Shown here: positions 32,291-39,963 of the stretch, piece after piece | Position numbering within the stretch: the first letter of the stretch is position 1 | How the letters are laid out: each line of letters starts with the position of its first letter | Assembly (NCBI GenBank): GCA_046329435.1 | Contig: JAXLUR010000012.1 | Coordinates: forward strand, 24,051-88,050 | Length of the DNA stretch: 64,000 bases | Source: Saprospiraceae bacterium | GTDB taxonomy: Bacteria > Bacteroidota > Bacteroidia > Chitinophagales > Saprospiraceae | Direction: 5' to 3' | Notes under the pieces: generated by a model | What the model was told of the DNA's origin: nothing | Databases searched by the model: none | Seen by the model: the letters and a program-made list of their open reading frames with translations, nothing else | Made by a program: the position numbers and the translations under genes

Positions 32291-34456
32291 TCAATGCGCC
32301 AGTTGGGCGGGCAAAAATTCCTGGAGCGTACTGCCTACGGTGCCGTGCCTAACCTTGAGATTGGCCGCGCCGCCGCTGTTGAAATACACCAGTTTGACGC
32401 CGTGCCAACCCTGCTGGAGCAAGGCCATACCGTTTTTGGTCTGATTGCTGTGATCGCCGTCATTGTTCACAACCAGTTCATTATCAATATATAATAAACT
32501 GCCATCATCGCTCTCTAGCGAGAATTCGTAGCCGCCCGTACGGGCCAACTTGATGTAGCCGGTCCAGATCATTCCGCAGCGGTCGGAATTGCAAAGCGGG
32601 TCGAGGGCGAAGTCAAACGATTCGTACTCGCGCTCCGTTTTGCCGTCGCGCTGCAGGGTGCTGGAGTTGTATTTCGAAGCCGTCAGCACCTGTGTGCGCA
32701 GGCCGGAAGCAGGTTCGCGAAGCATCGACAGGCTCGGCAGCATACGGTACGATTTGACCCGTACGGAATCTTCTCCGCTGGGCAACACGCCCGTTTTGAA
32801 TGCTTTTGCCCGAATGAGGCCCGAGCCGCTTACCGGCACGGTGGAGGTAAACAGATTGGAGTTTTCGCGCGGTTCGCTGCCGTCGGTAGTGTAACGGATG
32901 GTGGTTCCCGGAGTGGCGCATTTGATATCCATCGTGGCCTGCATCGACAAGGGGTTGTAATGCAGATCGATATCCGGTCGGGCAATGTAGTTGCCGTAGT
33001 TGTTGATTTTCAAGGCATAAGCATAATCGGTGGAAAATTTGGCAGGGTTGTATTCGGGCAGGTAAACCACCGTATTGCCGCCTTGCTGGGCCTCGATGCG
33101 CAGTTTTTCCCGGGTAGCCAGGAGCGTAACTTCGGTATTGGCTGGCAGCTGAATGCCGCGAAGAACAACTTTTCGGTCGGCCGGGTATTTGGGCAGAATG
33201 GCATACACCGCATTCTGCTTTGGATTCCAGGTGAAAAATACCTCTTTCACGGCGAAACCCGGATCGGGGTTGACGGTTTGTTTGAGAATGAGGTCGCCGC
33301 TTGTTTTCCACTGGTCTATTAATTCGGGCGTGAAATTGCGATTGCCGGCGCTCCACTGGCAGTCGTTGCGCCAGCGACGGGTGCCGTAAATGGCCTCGCC
33401 GTTGGCACTCAGCCATTTACCCATTTCAATCAGTCGTTCCTGCATGATCGGCGGAATCTGGCCGTGCGCGTCGGGGCCGATGTCGAGCAGGAAATTACCC
33501 CCGCGCGACACCTTGTCGATCAACTGAAGCACGAGTGATTGGGCCGAGTTGTAGTCCCAGGCATCTTCTGCGCGGTTGTAACCGTATGAATACCCGATAC
33601 CGCGGCTTTCTTCCCAGGGGTGGTCGGGGAAATCGAGATCGGGCTGGTATTCCGGCGTGTAAAAGCCTCCGTGGCTGAAACGCACGCCGGCGCCCCAACG
33701 ATCATTGACTGCAACATAGTCGCGTACAGGGCTTTGCGTGTACAGCCACGACAAAAACTGCGGCGACTGCCAGGTTTCGGGAGAAGCATCCCAGTCGCCG
33801 TCGGCCCAGAGCACCCAGGGTTGGTAATTTTGAACCAGTTCGTACAGTTGCGGGAGCATGTGTTCCTCCGCATACCGGCGCTGGTCGTAGCGCCAGAGCG
33901 GGTTGTACCATTCGTACAGGGAGTAATAAAGGCCGGGTTTGACCGAGGTTTTGCGCAAGGCGGTGAACAATTCGCCCACCAGGTCGCGGCGCGGGCCACG
34001 CGAGGCGGCGTTCCAGGGGATTCCCCAGTTGCGGTTGGCTTCCTCGCTTGGCCAGAGGCAAAAGCCGTCGTGGTGTTTGGAGGTCAAAACCACGTATTTG
34101 GCGCCGGCGTACTGAAACAGGTTGGCCCAGTCGTCGGCATTGAACAGTTCGGCGTGAAAATCGTCGGCGAGGTCGTAATAGGTACGGGTACCGAAATTGA
34201 TCTGGTGGTAAGCGCTGATGGCGCCGTCGGGATCATTCTGCTGAAGAGAATTCTGGTACCATTCTGCATAGCGCCCCTTGGGCGTAAAGGCCGGCACCGA
34301 GTACACCCCCCAATGGATAAAAATACCGAATTTGGCATCCTGCCACCATTCCGGCGTGGGGCGTTGATCGAGAGAAGACCAGGTGGGCTGGTAAACTTTT
34401 TGCGCCGAAACAGACAGGCAGACGAGGCAAAAAGCCAGAATAAACAATTTACGCAT
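32291..34456 (-). CDS. alpha-L-fucosidase (GH29) with C-terminal accessory domains including a PA14-like domain
   Basis: ORF 32291-34507 trimmed to MRKLFILAFCLVCLSVSAQ. The GH29 motifs are WWQDAKFGIFIHWGVYSVPAF and VVLTSKHHDGFCLWPS. The C-terminus GMIWTGYIKLARTGGYEFSLESDDGSLLYIDNELVVNNDGDH is PA14-like. Confidence 0.9.
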   Translation of the reverse strand: MRKLFILAFCLVCLSVSAQKVYQPTWSSLDQRPTPEWWQDAKFGIFIHWGVYSVPAFTPKGRYAEWYQNSLQQNDPDGAISAYHQINFGTRTYYDLADDFHAELFNADDWANLFQYAGAKYVVLTSKHHDGFCLWPSEEANRNWGIPWNAASRGPRRDLVGELFTALRKTSVKPGLYYSLYEWYNPLWRYDQRRYAEEHMLPQLYELVQNYQPWVLWADGDWDASPETWQSPQFLSWLYTQSPVRDYVAVNDRWGAGVRFSHGGFYTPEYQPDLDFPDHPWEESRGIGYSYGYNRAEDAWDYNSAQSLVLQLIDKVSRGGNFLLDIGPDAHGQIPPIMQERLIEMGKWLSANGEAIYGTRRWRNDCQWSAGNRNFTPELIDQWKTSGDLILKQTVNPDPGFAVKEVFFTWNPKQNAVYAILPKYPADRKVVLRGIQLPANTEVTLLATREKLRIEAQQGGNTVVYLPEYNPAKFSTDYAYALKINNYGNYIARPDIDLHYNPLSMQATMDIKCATPGTTIRYTTDGSEPRENSNLFTSTVPVSGSGLIRAKAFKTGVLPSGEDSVRVKSYRMLPSLSMLREPASGLRTQVLTASKYNSSTLQRDGKTEREYESFDFALDPLCNSDRCGMIWTGYIKLARTGGYEFSLESDDGSLLYIDNELVVNNDGDHSNQTKNGMALLQQGWHGVKLVYFNSGGAANLKVRHGTVGSTLQEFLPAQLAH

Positions 34457-34606
34457 GGCGAAAACGGGGAATTTGGAGGGTGAAGGAAATGGGTTTGACT
34501 TTGACAAAAGTAGCCTACAGCAGCATTGCTGAAAAAAAATTTACCACAGCGGGTTGCCGGATTCAAATTTAGCGCACATCTTTGCCGCATCAGTACAGTA
34601 GTACAC

Positions 34607-34699
34607 ATGCAACAACACCGCGCATATTATTTTGGCTTTTTGGGTTACTTTTTCTTTTTCGGAAAACGTGACAGGAACAGCCAGTGTGCCATGGTGTAA
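34607..34699 (+). CDS. putative Phe/Tyr-rich leader peptide (30 aa) of the pheA operon attenuator
   Basis: My own translation from ATG 34607 to TAA 34697-34699 gives MQQHRAYYFGFLGYFFFFGKRDRNSQCAMV. It has 6 Phe and 3 Tyr within 12 codons, including four consecutive Phe codons at 34649-34660. It is below the ORF-track cutoff and is followed by a terminator just before pheA. Confidence 0.6.
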   Translation: MQQHRAYYFGFLGYFFFFGKRDRNSQCAMV

Positions 34700-34728
34700 C
34701 TAACAGAAAAACAAAAATTCACCATCAT

Positions 34729-34769
34729 AACGGGAGTTCCTGCAACGCAGGGGCTCCCGTTTTCTTTTT
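34729..34769 (+). terminator. attenuator terminator immediately upstream of pheA
   Basis: aacgggagttcctgc-aac-gcaggggctcccgtt forms a stem of about 15 bp including two G-U pairs. It is followed by ttttcttttt and ends 15 nt before the ATG at 34784. Confidence 0.7.
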
Positions 34770-34783
34770 CTCCACACCCAGAT

Positions 34784-35677
34784 ATGAGCACATTGCCTTC
34801 TACACCTCCCATGCCTTCACCGGCCCGCGGCGCGATGCGCGTCGTCATTCAGGGTGTCCGCGGCGCGTTCCACGAAATTGCAGCGCGCCAGTTTTTCAAC
34901 GGCCCCGTGGAAGTCGTACCAGCCGCCACTTTCGCCGAACTCATTCGGCTTGCCGGACAAGCCGCGCAAACCGATGCCGCTGTAATGGCCATTGAAAACA
35001 GCATTGCCGGCAGCATTCTCGGCAATTACAAGTTGTTGCAAACGAGCGATCTGGCCATCACGGGCGAAATTTTTCTGCCCATTCGCCAAAACCTGCTTGC
35101 CCTGCCCGGCGTGCAAGCCGGCGACATCCGCGAGGTGCACTCCCACCCTATGGCGCTGGCCCAGTGCGCCGATTTTTTCCGACAATACCCACACTGGCAA
35201 CTGGTCGAAACCGACGACACCGCCGCAGCCGCAGCCCGCATCGCCCGCGACCGGCGCAACGACATGGCAGCCGTCGGCAGTGCCCTGGCAGCCGAACTCT
35301 ACGGCCTGACGGTACTTGCATCCGGCATCGAAACGCATGAAGCCAATTTCACCCGTTTCCTCGTACTCGAACGGCGCGAAACCGTCGCCAGCGCCGCGCC
35401 GAACGGCAGCATGAGCCGCCGCAAAATATCGGTCTGTTTCTCCGTGCCGCACCGCAGCGGAAGCCTGAGCCGTATCCTGACCGTGCTGGCCGGACAAAGC
35501 GCGAACCTGACCAAAATCCAGTCGGTGCCTATCGTCGGGAGGGTCGGTGAATACCTTTTTTTCGTCGATTTCACGCTCGAAAACCCCGCTGTCATCCCCG
35601 AAACACTGCGCCTGCTCGACGTGATGACCCAGGCCTGTCAGGTACTCGGTATTTACAAACCCGGCGAGCTCGCCTGA
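34784..35677 (+). CDS. pheA: prephenate dehydratase
   Basis: 297 aa with RVVIQGVRGAFHEIAARQFF (PDT domain) and a C-terminal ACT domain (KISVCFSVPHRSGSLSRILTVLA...ESRP-like). The start could be the downstream ATG at 34835 (MRVVIQG). Confidence 0.88.
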   Translation: MSTLPSTPPMPSPARGAMRVVIQGVRGAFHEIAARQFFNGPVEVVPAATFAELIRLAGQAAQTDAAVMAIENSIAGSILGNYKLLQTSDLAITGEIFLPIRQNLLALPGVQAGDIREVHSHPMALAQCADFFRQYPHWQLVETDDTAAAAARIARDRRNDMAAVGSALAAELYGLTVLASGIETHEANFTRFLVLERRETVASAAPNGSMSRRKISVCFSVPHRSGSLSRILTVLAGQSANLTKIQSVPIVGRVGEYLFFVDFTLENPAVIPETLRLLDVMTQACQVLGIYKPGELA

Positions 35678-35693
35678 AAACCCTCCATTCGAC

Positions 35694-36869
35694 ATGATCG
35701 CACCCGCCAGCCGCCTCGACGGCATTCAGGAATACTACTTCGCCGGCAAATTGCGCGAGATCGCACAAATGCGTGCAGCCGGCCTCCCCGTCATTAACCT
35801 CGGCATCGGCTCGCCCGACCTGCCCCCGCACCCCGATGTGGTTGAAGCGCTTCGGCACAGTTCTTCCGACCCCAAAGCCCACGGCTACCAATCGTACACG
35901 GGCCTGCCCGCGCTCCGCCAGGCCTGGGCCGACTGGTATGCGCGCCACTACGGCGTTGCGCTCAACCCCGACACTGAAATCCTTCCGCTGATCGGCTCCA
36001 AGGAAGGCATCGCGCACATCGCCTTCACTTTCCTGGAAAACGGCGACGAGGCGCTGGTGCCCAATCCCGGTTATCCGACCTACCGGGCTGCCACCCGGCT
36101 TGCCGGCGCAACCGTGCGCGAGTACCCGCTCGACGAAAAAAACAACTGGCTTCCCGAACTCCGCACACTGGCGCAGAGCGACCTGTCAAAGGTCAAGATC
36201 ATGTGGGTCAACTACCCGCACATGCCTACCGGCACGGCCGCACCCGAGCATTTTTTTCAGGAGTTGGTTGATTTTGGAAAGGAACATAAAATATTGATTG
36301 TCAATGACAACCCTTACAGTTTTATTCTCAACGACCGCCCCTTGAGTATTCTGCGGGCCAATGGCGCAGCAGGGGTGGCGCTCGAACTGAACTCGCTCAG
36401 CAAATCGCACAACCTCGCCGGATGGCGCGTAGGGGCGGTGCTAGGCCAGGATAAATACCTGAACGCCATCCTACGCTTCAAAAGCAACCTCGATTCCGGT
36501 CAGTTTCAGCCGGTACAGCTGGCCGCGGCAAAAGCCTTGCAAGCCGACGAATCGTGGTACCGGCAGGTCAATGAGCAATATCGCGAACGACAGCAAAAAG
36601 CGCTTGAATTGCTGACCGGAATCGGCTGCAACGTTGCAGCGGGCCAGCAGGGGCTGTTTCTGTGGGGGCGCATTCCGGGCCGTTTCGCCGACGCCTATAC
36701 ACTCAGCGATACCCTGCTGTACCAGGCGCATGTTTTTCTGACGCCCGGCGGCATTTTCGGCAGTGCCGGCGAACGGCACATCCGCATTTCCCTGTGCCAG
36801 CCGCCCGATGTACTTCAGGAAGCCATTGACCGCATCCAGTCCATTCATTTTAAAACCCTTGCCGCATGA
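35694..36869 (+). CDS. class I/II PLP-dependent aminotransferase (probable aromatic/prephenate aminotransferase of the operon)
   Basis: 391 aa with INLGIGSPDLPPHPDV..., NPGYPTY and SLSKSHNLAGWRVG (PLP-lysine motif). Confidence 0.85.
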   Translation: MIAPASRLDGIQEYYFAGKLREIAQMRAAGLPVINLGIGSPDLPPHPDVVEALRHSSSDPKAHGYQSYTGLPALRQAWADWYARHYGVALNPDTEILPLIGSKEGIAHIAFTFLENGDEALVPNPGYPTYRAATRLAGATVREYPLDEKNNWLPELRTLAQSDLSKVKIMWVNYPHMPTGTAAPEHFFQELVDFGKEHKILIVNDNPYSFILNDRPLSILRANGAAGVALELNSLSKSHNLAGWRVGAVLGQDKYLNAILRFKSNLDSGQFQPVQLAAAKALQADESWYRQVNEQYRERQQKALELLTGIGCNVAAGQQGLFLWGRIPGRFADAYTLSDTLLYQAHVFLTPGGIFGSAGERHIRISLCQPPDVLQEAIDRIQSIHFKTLAA

Positions 36870-37711
36870 CAATTTGCATTATTGGCATTGGTTTGATCGG
36901 AGGCTCCATAGCGCGCGATGTGCGCGAAAAAGGCCTGGCCAGGCGCATCATCGGCGTCGAAAAAAAAACCGTACATGCCCGCGAAGCGCTGGCGCTGGGG
37001 GTGGCAGACGAAATATTGCCCCTCGAGAAAGCCCTCGCCGCCAGCGATTTCATCATATGCGCTACTCCCGTGGATCATTTGTCGGATTTATTGCCCCGGG
37101 TGCTCGACCTGATCGGGCCGGAACAGGTGGTGATCGATGTGGGATCCACTAAATCGGCAGTTCTAGAAGCCGTCGAGCGCCATCCGCGACGCGACCGTTT
37201 CGTGGCCACGCACCCGATGGCCGGTACGGAATACTCCGGTCCGGGCGCTGCGATCAGCGGTTTGTTCAGCGGCAAATGTTGCGTACTCTGCGACAGGGCC
37301 GCCAGCGCGCCCGACGCCCTTGAAAAAGTGCAGCAATTCTACACGGCGCTGGGCATGCACCTCGTGGAGCTCGACGGCGCAGCGCACGACCTGCACGTAG
37401 CTTATGTGAGTCACATTTCGCACATCGCCTCGTTTGCGCTTGCCCTCACGGTGCTGGAAAAAGAGCGGGAGGAAGCCCGAATTTTCGAACTGGCCAGCGG
37501 TGGTTTCAGCAGCACCGTACGGCTTGCCAAAAGCAATGCCGACACCTGGATACCTATTTTTCAACAAAACCGGGAAAATGTGCTCGATGTGCTCGACGAA
37601 TACATCAACACCGTGAGCCGCTTTCGCACTTTACTGATCAAAAAAGACTTCGGCGCCTTCGATCAACTGATTCGGAAAGCCAATGACATCCGCAGGATTC
37701 TGCACCCTTGA
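36866..37711 (+). CDS. tyrA: prephenate dehydrogenase
   Basis: 281 aa. The start overlaps the upstream stop as ATGA. It has the Rossmann motif ICIIGIGLIGGSIA, and VATHPMAG is typical of TyrA. Confidence 0.88.
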   Translation: MTICIIGIGLIGGSIARDVREKGLARRIIGVEKKTVHAREALALGVADEILPLEKALAASDFIICATPVDHLSDLLPRVLDLIGPEQVVIDVGSTKSAVLEAVERHPRRDRFVATHPMAGTEYSGPGAAISGLFSGKCCVLCDRAASAPDALEKVQQFYTALGMHLVELDGAAHDLHVAYVSHISHIASFALALTVLEKEREEARIFELASGGFSSTVRLAKSNADTWIPIFQQNRENVLDVLDEYINTVSRFRTLLIKKDFGAFDQLIRKANDIRRILHP

Positions 37712-37766
37712 AACCGCCACTGACAGCTATCTATCTTCTTCACGATCAAAGAATTAATTATCCGCC

Positions 37767-38840
37767 ATGTTCAACAAATCCGCTTCCCGCCCCTTCCTCA
37801 TTGCCGGCCCCTGTTCGGCCGAGACCGAAGAACAAGTCATGGACGTCGCCCGGGGACTCTCCGGTCAGGGTATCGACCTGTTCCGTGCAGGCGTCTGGAA
37901 ACCGCGCACTCGCCCGGGCGCATTCGAAGGCAACGGCGCCACAGCCCTCCCCTGGCTGCGCCGTGTAAAAGCCGAAACTGGTCTGCGCACCACGATCGAG
38001 GTAGCCACAGGCCAGCAGGCTTATGAAGCGCTGAAATTCGGCGTGGATGTGTTGTGGATCGGCGCCCGCACCACCGTCAATCCCTTTTCCGTTCAGGAAA
38101 TCGCAGACGCACTGCGCGGAGTGGAGGTGCCGGTGTTGGTCAAAAATCCGGTCAACCCCGACCTGGAACTCTGGATCGGGGCCATCGAGCGTTTGCAGAA
38201 TGCCGGCGTCGGCCCGATCGGAGCCGTGCATCGCGGTTTTTCGGCTTACGCCAAAACCAGGTTTCGCAATGCGCCCTGGTGGGAAATTCCGATCGAATTG
38301 CGCCGCCGGATGCCCGATTTACCCCTGATCTGCGACAACAGCCACATCTGCGGCAACCGCGACGACCTGCTCGAAGTGGCCCAGCAAGCCCTCGACCTGA
38401 ACTACGACGGCCTGATGACCGAAGTCCATTGCCGCCCCGACGAAGCGTGGAGCGATGCCAAACAACAGATCACGCCTTTTGCCTACGGCGAAATGCTGCG
38501 CCGCCTGACCGTGCCGCAAGTGACCAGCGACAATCCGGAGTTTCTCGAAAACCTGGAACACCTGCGCCATAAAATTGACGAAATCGACCTCGAAATGTTC
38601 AATTTACTGGCCCGCCGGATGCGTTGCGCACAGGAAATCGGCCGCTACAAGCAGCGCAACAACATTGCCATCCTGCAATCGACGCGCTGGAACAGCATCC
38701 TGGAAAAGGCCTTTGCACAGGGCCGCCAGCGCGGACTGAGCGACGAGTTCGTGGAAAAAATGTTCACCGCCGTTCACCAGGAAAGTATTGCGCAACAAAC
38801 CGCCATTATGCACGGGGCTGCTGTCGAAGCGCAACATTGA
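37767..38840 (+). CDS. bifunctional 3-deoxy-7-phosphoheptulonate (DAHP) synthase / chorismate mutase type II
   Basis: 357 aa. The N-terminal KDO8P/DAHPS-I-beta-like barrel is PFLIAGPCSAETEEQV...RAGVWKPRT. The C-terminal CM_2 domain is LRHKIDEIDLEMFNLLARRMRCAQEIGRYK. Confidence 0.88.
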   Translation: MFNKSASRPFLIAGPCSAETEEQVMDVARGLSGQGIDLFRAGVWKPRTRPGAFEGNGATALPWLRRVKAETGLRTTIEVATGQQAYEALKFGVDVLWIGARTTVNPFSVQEIADALRGVEVPVLVKNPVNPDLELWIGAIERLQNAGVGPIGAVHRGFSAYAKTRFRNAPWWEIPIELRRRMPDLPLICDNSHICGNRDDLLEVAQQALDLNYDGLMTEVHCRPDEAWSDAKQQITPFAYGEMLRRLTVPQVTSDNPEFLENLEHLRHKIDEIDLEMFNLLARRMRCAQEIGRYKQRNNIAILQSTRWNSILEKAFAQGRQRGLSDEFVEKMFTAVHQESIAQQTAIMHGAAVEAQH

Positions 38841-38844
38841 GTCG

Positions 38845-38852
38845 TATTTTTG
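38845..38852 (+). promoter_or_regulatory. putative -7 box (TATTTTTG) only 4 nt from the next start codon (possible leaderless transcript)
   Basis: TATTTTTG at 38845-38852, with the ATG at 38857. Confidence 0.3.
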
Positions 38853-38856
38853 TCGC

Positions 38857-39462
38857 ATGAAAACTGTCGGACCGGGCGCTTACGGCGCACCTAAATATTA
38901 CCTCGTGTACAAACCCTACGGCATGTTGTCGCAGTTTACCCGCGAGGCGCCCGGGCAAACTACCCTGGCCGACCTGGATTTTACCTTCCCCAGGGATGTG
39001 TATCCAGTGGGCCGCCTCGATGCCGACAGCGAAGGCTTGCTGTTGCTGACCAGCGACAAATCCCTGAATACGCGGATGCTCGACCCGCGTTTCGAGCATC
39101 CGCGAACCTACTGGGCCCAGGTAGAAGGCATACCAGACGAAACGGCGCTCGTCCGCCTGCAAACCGGCGTCGATATTCAGGTCAATGGCAAACGGCACCA
39201 CACCAGGCCGGCCCTGGCAAGGGTGCTGTTACCGGCGCCGATGCTCCCCGAACGCAATCCGCCCATCCGTTTTCGGAAAACAGTGCCCGATACCTGGCTC
39301 GAGCTGACGCTGACCGAAGGTAAAAACCGGCAGGTACGACGGATGTGCGCAGCAGTCGGTTTGCCGGTGTTGCGCCTGGTACGGGCGGCCATCGGGCGTG
39401 TTCTACTGGGTGATATGCAGCCCGGAGAAGTGCGGGAAGCAAGCAGGGAGTTGTTCCAGTAG
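38857..39462 (+). CDS. pseudouridine synthase, RsuA/RluE family
   Basis: ORF 38788-39462 trimmed to MKTVGPGAYGAPKYYLVYKPYGMLSQF. It has the catalytic motif VGRLDADSEGLLLLTSD and GKNRQVRRM. Confidence 0.88.
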   Translation: MKTVGPGAYGAPKYYLVYKPYGMLSQFTREAPGQTTLADLDFTFPRDVYPVGRLDADSEGLLLLTSDKSLNTRMLDPRFEHPRTYWAQVEGIPDETALVRLQTGVDIQVNGKRHHTRPALARVLLPAPMLPERNPPIRFRKTVPDTWLELTLTEGKNRQVRRMCAAVGLPVLRLVRAAIGRVLLGDMQPGEVREASRELFQ

Positions 39463-39489
39463 ATGCCGGGGAATTTTTCGAAAAAAACA

Positions 39490-39963
39490 TCAGGCTGGCA
39501 TGACGCCGAACAGTTCCTCCAGTTTTTTCCAGCGGTAATTAAAAATGCCTTCCAGCTGCCGTCGTACGAAAATGGCGTGGGCAAGGCGACCCAAAATGCC
39601 GAGCGGAAGGCGATAATGAACGAGATCGGTCATTTCCACACCGCCTTCAATCGCCTTGAAATGGTGCTGATGATGCCAGAGCGCATAGGGGCCGACCCGT
39701 TGCTCATCCACAAAAAAGCGTTGGTGTTCGACGTGGGTGATTTCGGTCATCCAGTACAGCGGGATGCCCAGCAGGGGCGTGACGGTATAATCGATGATCT
39801 GACCGGCATACATGTGCGTCAAAAAAGCCGGGTCGGTGTGTACATGAAACCCCATGTAAGGTGGGGTAATCACTTTCAGGTTGTCGGGTGCGGAGAAGAA
39901 GTCCCAGGCGTGTTCGAGGGAGATGGGCAGTCGTTGTACTCTTTTTAACGTAAAAGTGGCCAT
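39490..39963 (-). CDS. SRPBCC (START/Bet v1-like) family protein
   Basis: ORF 39490-39996 trimmed to MATFTLKRVQRLPISLEHAWDFFSAPDNL. VDEQRVGPYALWHHQHHF is typical of the SRPBCC/DUF1731-associated group. Confidence 0.75.
   Translation of the reverse strand: MATFTLKRVQRLPISLEHAWDFFSAPDNLKVITPPYMGFHVHTDPAFLTHMYAGQIIDYTVTPLLGIPLYWMTEITHVEHQRFFVDEQRVGPYALWHHQHHFKAIEGGVEMTDLVHYRLPLGILGRLAHAIFVRRQLEGIFNYRWKKLEELFGVMPA

Follow-up and report, generated by a model that had tools for sequence, protein, structure and literature searches.

A Phe/Tyr-rich leader before pheA in a Saprospiraceae genome: a predicted ribosome-mediated attenuator with a candidate TrpR-family operator at its promoter

Introduction

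In E. coli, the pheL-pheA leader (RF01859) and the trpL, hisL, leuL, thrL and ilv class share one logic, in which a leader with cognate codons, helices 1:2, 2:3 and 3:4 and a terminator precede the first gene of the operon; the enterobacterial pheL class has been reviewed (PMC3082878). Here we describe an element of the same logic upstream of pheA in a Saprospiraceae bacterium (contig JAXLUR010000012.1), analysed within a window of 64,000 nt to which all coordinates refer unless a contig is named. It consists of an open reading frame (ORF) rich in Phe and Tyr codons followed by a terminator, and it stands before an operon of pheA, an aminotransferase gene, tyrA and a DAHP synthase/chorismate mutase fusion gene (DAHPS/CM). 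The element has no sequence or covariance-model similarity to E. coli pheL-pheA (no Rfam match at E values up to 10). Its Phe and Tyr codons are mixed, so that control would be multivalent, as in the ilv and thr leaders; the enterobacterial pheL leader is Phe-only (PMC3082878). It also differs from E. coli pheL in an operon where genes of the Phe branch and of the Tyr branch are combined with DAHPS/CM, in a promoter of the Bacteroidota type and in the lack of a Shine-Dalgarno sequence.

Closer relatives of the element have been described within the phylum. A pheA leader of Flavobacterium psychrophilum is listed by Guerin et al. (2021; PMC9723704, supplementary Table S7, SI D9; THC0290_N_0195), where its sigma-A start site was mapped, a 5' segment of 171 nt was quantified on its own and conditional read-through was seen, with the highest expression in minimal medium. 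As in the present locus, a Phe/Tyr-rich leader (27 aa, MNTNNTFYSNNSFYFYWNIGRDCYMVI) and a terminator lie before pheA and an aminotransferase gene, and a sigma-A-type promoter with a short 5' untranslated region (UTR) lies upstream of the leader. The two differ in the sequence and length of the leader and in the sequences of terminator and antiterminator. Unlike the F. psychrophilum operon, the present one also carries tyrA and DAHPS/CM, and the clade studied here has an additional operator-like promoter motif that is absent from the Flavobacteriales loci examined. Six Flavobacteriales loci (L048, L070, L071, L082, L085 and L088) bridge the F. psychrophilum and host leaders as a continuous series.

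In Bacteroides thetaiotaomicron, an attenuator before pheA>hisHb>aroA-aroQ>tyrA was listed as early as 2005 (Merino attenuator database, in Song et al., PMC1173090, Table 7). The gene set is the same as here and the attenuator is predicted at the same place; the table entry gives predicted alternative hairpins only, with neither a leader peptide nor a comparative analysis (PMC1173090). In our collection, the Bacteroides-like loci L043, L046 and L053 carry Phe/Tyr leaders of 15-16 aa. Vitreschak et al. in 2004 and Lopatovskaya et al. in 2010 are also said to have predicted attenuators in Bacteroidetes/Chlorobi. This type of pheA leader is thus already described in Bacteroidota and is not a discovery. 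For the field the result is a gain in annotation, the attenuator itself being textbook biology: routine annotation and Rfam both miss the switch before pheA in about 90% of the sampled Bacteroidota, and the roughly 80 instances collected here could seed an Rfam family or an annotation rule. The candidate operator is, we infer from sequence comparison, the only part that would go beyond prior knowledge.

Leader peptide, terminator and promoter

We interpret the element before pheA as a classical ribosome-mediated transcription attenuator and put the probability of this interpretation at roughly 0.9. The same interpretation had been offered in an initial annotation of this DNA, and the leader, the terminator, the antiterminator complementarity and the promoter to which it pointed were all found to be conserved in the way that ribosome-mediated attenuation predicts. 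The pheL-like leader ORF (34607..34699, plus strand) begins with an ATG at 34607, ends with a stop codon at 34697-34699 and comprises 30 codons that are read as MQQHRAYYFGFLGYFFFFGKRDRNSQCAMV; homologous Phe/Tyr-rich ORFs are present in relatives. Six Phe codons (UUU/UUC) and three Tyr codons (UAU/UAC) fall within the 12 codons from 7 to 18 (34625..34660, plus strand), with four successive Phe codons at 34649-34660. Short ORFs with at least 6 Phe or Tyr in 10 residues and a terminator behind them occur only four times in the whole 5.7-Mb genome and just one of these, the pheA leader, precedes an aromatic amino acid gene, so a chance origin is excluded.

An intrinsic terminator (34729..34771, plus strand) follows the ORF and was recovered by the terminator scan, in the consensus fold and in relatives. 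Its stem (34729-34761) has 15 pairs, 9 of them G-C, with a loop of 3 nt, and is followed by TTCTTTTTCT. Its energy is -24.7 kcal/mol (script estimate), and the other eight terminator-like sites in 34000-39500 are far weaker. Because the upstream gene, a fucosidase gene on the minus strand, is divergent, the terminator ends no other gene. The 201-nt leader as a whole folded at -60.7 kcal/mol, compared to -42.3 ± 3.9 for shuffled sequences (z = -4.7), and none of 200 shuffles equalled it. Two helices, the terminator and helix 1:2, were recovered by RNAalifold from eight genus sequences. In the eight aligned genus leaders 15/15 pairs of the terminator stem were kept, bar three single-sequence exceptions, and several were kept by means of compensatory changes. 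Helix 1:2 (34633..34683, plus strand), which was present in the minimum free energy fold and in the RNAalifold consensus, pairs the U-rich Phe/Tyr codon tract at 34633-34655 with the purine-rich segment at 34661-34683; the GG:CC base of this helix is invariant and compensatory changes were found at 11 of its pairs.

Upstream of the leader, a TTG (34554..34556, plus strand) and a cATCTTTG (34577..34584, plus strand; consensus TAnnTTTG) were read from the sequence, and both are conserved in relatives. They are separated by 20 nt, a spacing kept in L002-L005, and presumably represent the -33 and -7 elements of a sigma-A-type promoter in the Bacteroidota layout. The arrangement TTG-N18-21-nAnnTTTG was found upstream of the leader in 39/78 related loci, compared to 2/78 in a reverse-strand control, and a -7 box in 51/78 loci compared to 8/78 controls. 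By analogy with the mapped start of F. psychrophilum pheA (TTTG-N5-+1), transcription should start near 34590.

The initial annotation had placed the 30-codon ORF with its Phe/Tyr run, a strong hairpin followed by a T run, the complementary segments caggaac (34672-34678) and gttcctg (34736-34742) and a near-consensus promoter at the positions just described, and there they were found, the hairpin by the terminator scan and the promoter upstream of related leaders as well. Two distances were corrected. Between the stop codon and the stem 29 nt were counted instead of 30, and the T run ttttcttttt (34760-34769) ends 14 nt, not 15, before the ATG at 34784.

Conservation in Bacteroidota

The nearest public pheA loci are those of Saprospiraceae and Lewinellaceae metagenome-assembled genomes, and the DNA of the locus recurs in activated-sludge and wastewater metagenomes. 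Homologous leaders were found in eight relatives of the genus, for example MQQHTFYFGFSFYFFFYGKEKRNSLCASV and MNNSRTFYFGFCFFYFFFGKRKGNYLCDSV, and in a relative of another family (MNNTFFYGYYFFRN). For a wider comparison, 74 pheA loci with sufficient upstream sequence were taken from Saprospiraceae, Bacteroidales, Marinilabiliales and Flavobacteriales, and a leader was defined as an ORF that starts with ATG, is 8-60 codons long and has 6 or more Phe or Tyr in a stretch of 10 residues. Such an ORF was present upstream of pheA in 69/74 loci, compared to 0/74 on the reverse strand, 0/74 in coding windows and 7/1480 in shuffled sequences. A hairpin and T tract lay between leader and pheA in 70/71 leader-bearing loci. 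Both the Phe/Tyr run and the stems, whose conservation had been left as a check on the initial annotation, are thus conserved in relatives, the stems with compensatory changes. In L027, L030, L034 and L084 the Phe/Tyr leader lies 115-210 nt upstream of the detected terminator, and these loci might contain tandem leader/terminator units.

None of the 80 related leaders has fewer than 2 Phe or fewer than 2 Tyr codons (means 5.3 and 3.6, respectively). Because every one of them mixes the two, joint sensing of Phe and Tyr is, as judged from these sequences, the rule in the phylum; the switch always reads the two amino acids together, which fits an operon that makes both. The Rfam models recommended for comparison did not recognise the element. 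A search of 34300-35000 at E values up to 10 returned neither Phe_leader (RF01859) nor another leader family and only noise (sR51 and StyR-143, E ~7), and no match was obtained at the gathering score in 20 related loci.

Antiterminator and ribosome position

The complementarity between leader and terminator extends over a composite antiterminator (34672..34742, plus strand), which was examined by nascent folds constrained by a ribosome footprint, by covariation and by shuffle and swap tests. Its 5' strands are CAGGAAC (34672-78), CC (34681-82), UGUG (34685-88) and AUGGUG (34691-96), and its 3' strands are CACCAU (34720-25), CAUA (34726-29), GG (34732-33) and GUUCCUG (34736-42). The caggaac:gttcctg antiterminator of the initial annotation is supported by these approaches, with a pairing longer than the 7 nt first claimed.

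The nascent RNA was folded up to the terminator loop with the ribosome footprint set at various positions. With the A site on Tyr7, Phe9 or Phe15 the composite antiterminator was predicted and the 5' arm of the terminator was sequestered, while helix 1:2 formed instead when no ribosome was present. In these predicted folds the antiterminator depends on a ribosome at the Phe/Tyr codons, as attenuation predicts. With a ribosome at the stop codon (~34682-34709) the inner antiterminator helices lie under the footprint, helix 1:2 is able to form again behind the ribosome, and the antiterminator was not predicted. The proposal that a ribosome at this position masks the antiterminator thus holds for the inner helices only; the caggaac segment itself is left uncovered and is free to pair again with the U-rich Phe codons.

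Per-sequence folds showed the architecture of the outer antiterminator helix in all members of the clade. In L026 (AGAGAACUCC:GGAGUUCUCU) and in L019 the outer helix changes along with the terminator, a three-way covariation. Because the MAFFT alignment A3 placed region 2 of these two loci out of register, per-sequence folds and the swap test were used instead of formal pair counts. In the shuffle test (73 loci), 75% of the bases of the 5' arm were paired upstream in the stalled state, compared to 44% after shuffling (mean z = -2.8). In the swap test (71 loci), cognate duplexes of region 2 and arm averaged -12.7 kcal/mol, compared to -8.1 kcal/mol for non-cognate duplexes, and in 50/71 loci fewer than 10% of foreign region-2 segments bound the arm better than its own.

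Proposed mechanism and alternative explanations

The anatomy, conservation, covariation and predicted folding of the element are established. From the anatomy and the comparison with relatives we infer translation of the leader, ribosome stalling and premature termination, which would work together as follows. Transcription would start near 34590 from the Bacteroidota-type promoter and the 30-codon leader would be translated while RNA polymerase proceeds. When charged tRNA-Phe or tRNA-Tyr is scarce, the ribosome would stall in codons 7-18 and leave the purine-rich segment 34661-34696 free to pair with the 5' arm of the terminator (34720-34742); with the terminator blocked, polymerase would continue into pheA, the aminotransferase gene, tyrA and the DAHPS/CM gene. 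When both amino acids are abundant, the ribosome would reach the stop codon and cover the inner antiterminator helices, CAGGAAC would pair again with the Phe-codon tract, the 15-bp terminator would form and transcription would stop at ~34770. The mix of Phe and Tyr codons would let the switch answer to either product of the operon.

Several observations weigh against the attenuator interpretation. The leader has no Shine-Dalgarno sequence, so the sequence cannot tell whether it is translated; the absence of such sequences is normal in Bacteroidota. In thermodynamic terms the terminator (-24.7 kcal/mol) outweighs the antiterminator (-22 kcal/mol in the nascent fold), which means that the switch has to be kinetic. 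Placing the A site on the last Phe codon (F18) gives a predicted nascent fold other than the antiterminator. About half of the related loci are predicted to form the antiterminator with no ribosome present, and the three-state model of the trp type is therefore not universal. Finally, the metatranscriptome support is thin. Four runs gave three short contigs at the locus, too shallow for a start site or premature termination. One is an adapter-flanked insert of 143 nt (34648-34790) that crosses the terminator and would be a read-through molecule, one comes from a 95%-identical relative and covers 34595-34743, and the third falls within pheA; either of the first two could be contaminating DNA.

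Two other explanations of the element were considered. In one, the functional product is the leader itself, either as a small hydrophobic peptide made from the short ORF or as a trans-acting small RNA (sRNA) of ~180 nt; the hairpin would simply end this transcript, and its place before pheA would be incidental or of secondary importance. The leader transcript would indeed be freed as a discrete RNA of ~180 nt, an attenuator-derived sRNA and a functional leader peptide are reported from Sinorhizobium (rnTrpL and peTrpL; PMC6614838, PMC7298713), and the C-terminus of the peptide, RNSxC, looks conserved within the genus. The RNSxC codons, however, occupy the very stretch of RNA (AGGAAC..CC) that is engaged in pairing with the terminator arm, and RNA pairing explains their conservation. 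Across the phylum only the Phe/Tyr run is conserved, while length (14 to 34 residues) and the other sequence vary freely. The element is also always directly upstream of pheA, and a role in trans would add to attenuation rather than replace it, so we regard this explanation as very improbable. No better is the prospect that the terminator is governed by a leader-RNA-binding protein, tRNA or metabolite (TRAP-, T-box- or riboswitch-like), with the ORF a by-product of U-rich RNA: the lack of a recognisable ribosome-binding signal and the U-rich strand of helix 1:2, which alone would enrich UUU/UUC codons, could be read that way, but an open frame with ATG and in-frame stop is kept in 69/74 loci, UAU/UAC Tyr codons stand beside the Phe codons in all 80 leaders, which mere U-richness does not predict, and the leader has neither TRAP-like repeats nor a match to a riboswitch, T-box or other Rfam family.

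A candidate TrpR-family operator

The attenuator is preceded by an operator-like motif, GCCGCATCAGTACAGTAGTACAC, which is a candidate TrpR-family site on the grounds of a position weight matrix (PWM), conservation in the genus and co-occurrence with trpR. It covers the 23 nt from the -7 box to the leader ATG (34584..34606, neither strand being assigned), across the predicted start site, and this interval is conserved in the genus as CGTAnyAGTACAnnAGTACA. The same motif follows directly after the -7 box before trpG-D and trpE in the host genome, and before trpG-D it is kept in six relatives. A PWM built solely from the relatives' sites was scored over the whole 5.7-Mb genome, and the promoters of trpE (28.0 bits), pheL (25.5 bits) and trpG-D (24.1 bits) were the top three sites genome-wide. 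The reverse readings of the two trp sites ranked fourth and seventh, and the motif there is therefore a quasi-palindrome. The sites at ranks 5 and 6 (C6 and C10:135053) have no aromatic-pathway gene downstream and were set aside. A third copy of the motif (GAGTACATTAATACA, contig C1:700691, plus strand) with a promoter-like -7 box was a loose regular-expression match that scored below 14.8 bits and was not counted; it reads into the 3' end of aroC (chorismate synthase; NF003793, 478 bits) in the antisense direction.

The host encodes a TrpR-family protein of 87 aa (contig C16, ~267304-267567; PF01371 at 267328-267564, 37.9-38.3 bits, cut-off 27) immediately upstream of trpE. The protein aligns to E. 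coli TrpR structures over residues 6-80 and keeps the residues aligned with E. coli TrpR Arg54, Thr81 and Arg84, which we take to be functionally important. The motif at the pheL promoter was present in the genus and in L015-L017 and in 0/67 other Bacteroidota pheL promoters. A copy was found in 7/7 trpR-positive relatives with a pheA locus, and in the single trpR-negative relative it is degenerate. A degenerate 20-nt pattern had a mean of 5.6 matches in 13 genus genomes with trpR, compared to 0.58 in 12 without it (Mann-Whitney p = 3e-5, a test that ignores phylogeny); the reversed pattern, used as a control, had 0-3 matches per genome.

At the trpE locus (C16:267304-267680) the TrpR-family gene is followed by a terminator and by the trpE promoter with a 28-bp quasi-palindrome, TGCATCATCGTACCGATACATTGATACA, that stops 3 nt short of the trpE ATG. 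On the minus strand of C10 (~465290-465320), a trpG-trpD fusion that heads a trpCF-trpB-trpA-DAHPS cluster is preceded by a similar site. No Trp leader peptide was found at the host trpE and trpG-trpD genes. All three genes behind the motif open with ATGCAA (Met-Gln: MQQH, MQTH and MQKI); at trpE an outer inverted repeat, TTGCAT...ATGCAA, includes the start codon. Spacing is not constant across the three sites (19, 23 and 25 nt). A divergent trpE (~35% identical to that of the host) with a classical WWW leader and a terminator was seen in L168 (G027), L170 (G004) and L171 (G011), whose Trp leaders are MTINKFWWWNSKRQ, MKNINFINNNWWWQISASQPRR and MISRLNIQNIWWWLPFCDSSGE, respectively. The TrpR-linked type of trpE may be a replaced or horizontally acquired module.

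From these sequence comparisons the balance tips modestly towards 34584-34606 being the operator of a TrpR-family repressor, which would add a tryptophan input at initiation on top of Phe/Tyr attenuation. The strongest alternative, to which we give a chance somewhat short of even, is that the motif is not a TrpR operator and either serves some other regulator or is preserved as an RNA element at the 5' end, or as an initially transcribed sequence, common to promoters of aromatic amino acid genes. In its favour, and against an operator, the pheL copy is asymmetric, with only 10/28 positions self-complementary, and is without 3 nt of the left arm seen at the trp sites. GUAC-N4-GUAC in the pheL copies could make a 4-bp hairpin, with two compensatory changes in L005, and common descent within the genus may account for part of the co-occurrence with trpR. 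The trp copies, however, are quasi-palindromic on DNA (20/28 positions, with the pattern on both strands) and yet cannot form this RNA hairpin; for the same reason a GUAC-N4-GUAC 5' RNA hairpin was rejected as the main cause of the conserved 5' UTR. That trpR lies directly upstream of the best site (trpE), that motif counts follow trpR presence and that the repressor keeps the aligned TrpR residues also speak for a TrpR-family operator.

In the study by Leyn et al. (2016; PMC5343134), TrpR regulons were confined to gammaproteobacteria. It is with these regulons, and with that of E. coli (trpEDCBA, aroH, aroL, mtr and trpR), that the present sites are best compared. As in TrpR regulons, a TrpR-family gene stands beside trpE, and GTAC quasi-palindromes lie over the promoters of trp genes and of a DAHP-synthase operon. 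TrpR control of aroF-tyrA has been predicted in Shewanella. The combination of operator and attenuation recalls the E. coli trp operon, although the attenuator here senses Phe/Tyr and not Trp. The candidate operator, approximately TGyATCAwyGTAyC joined to GrTACrwTGATrCA, is unlike the gammaproteobacterial TrpR operator, and the phylum differs.

If the operator is real, this would be the first TrpR regulon in Bacteroidota and a compact control with three inputs, Trp at initiation and Phe and Tyr at elongation. In the broader scenario, for which the genomic comparisons give about an even chance, the Phe/Tyr operon of this lineage would respond to Trp, Phe and Tyr through two layers of control, a TrpR-family operator over the start and read-through of the Phe/Tyr leader, and the trp genes of the lineage would have swapped an ancestral WWW-leader attenuator, kept in sister species without the TrpR-linked trpE, for an operator. 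Among closely related species, repression would then have taken the place of attenuation at one operon and been added to it at another.

Operon genes and a second leader peptide

The order pheA-aminotransferase-tyrA-DAHPS/CM had been proposed before, and the gene identities were borne out by Pfam and NCBIfam; all four genes are on the plus strand. The first, pheA (34784..35677), encodes a prephenate dehydratase with an ACT domain (Pfam PDT, 1.5e-55; NCBIfam prephenate dehydratase). In-frame ATGs are present at 34784, 34811 and 34835. Since similarity to relatives is seen only from about residue 18 onwards, translation may really begin at the third of them (MRVVIQG...), which would lengthen the spacer after the terminator. 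A class I/II aminotransferase gene (35694..36869; Pfam Aminotran_1_2, 7.9e-64) follows, for which NCBIfam matches were under the equivalog cut-offs. Its stop codon is overlapped by the start of tyrA (36866..37711), encoding prephenate dehydrogenase (Pfam PDH_N and PDH_C; NCBIfam NF006307, 333.6 bits, cut-off 295). The last gene (37767..38840) encodes a fusion of type I-beta DAHP synthase and chorismate mutase (Pfam DAHP_synth_1 and CM_2). A pseudouridine synthase gene (38857-39462, plus strand; PF00849, 78 bits) begins 16 nt past the DAHPS/CM stop codon; no terminator was seen between the two genes, and the next ORF overlaps the stop codon of the pseudouridine synthase gene. The attenuator-controlled transcript may extend into these non-aromatic genes.

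A genome-wide scan for further leader peptides was very noisy, with Leu, Ile, Trp and Thr candidate ORFs preceding unrelated genes, and yielded a single convincing case. This second leader-peptide attenuator of the host genome has a His leader, MNIAIIQLHHRHHLPRGK, at C2:64544-64600 (plus strand), directly upstream of hisG (TIGR00070, 196 bits), and its terminator has an energy of -24.9 kcal/mol.

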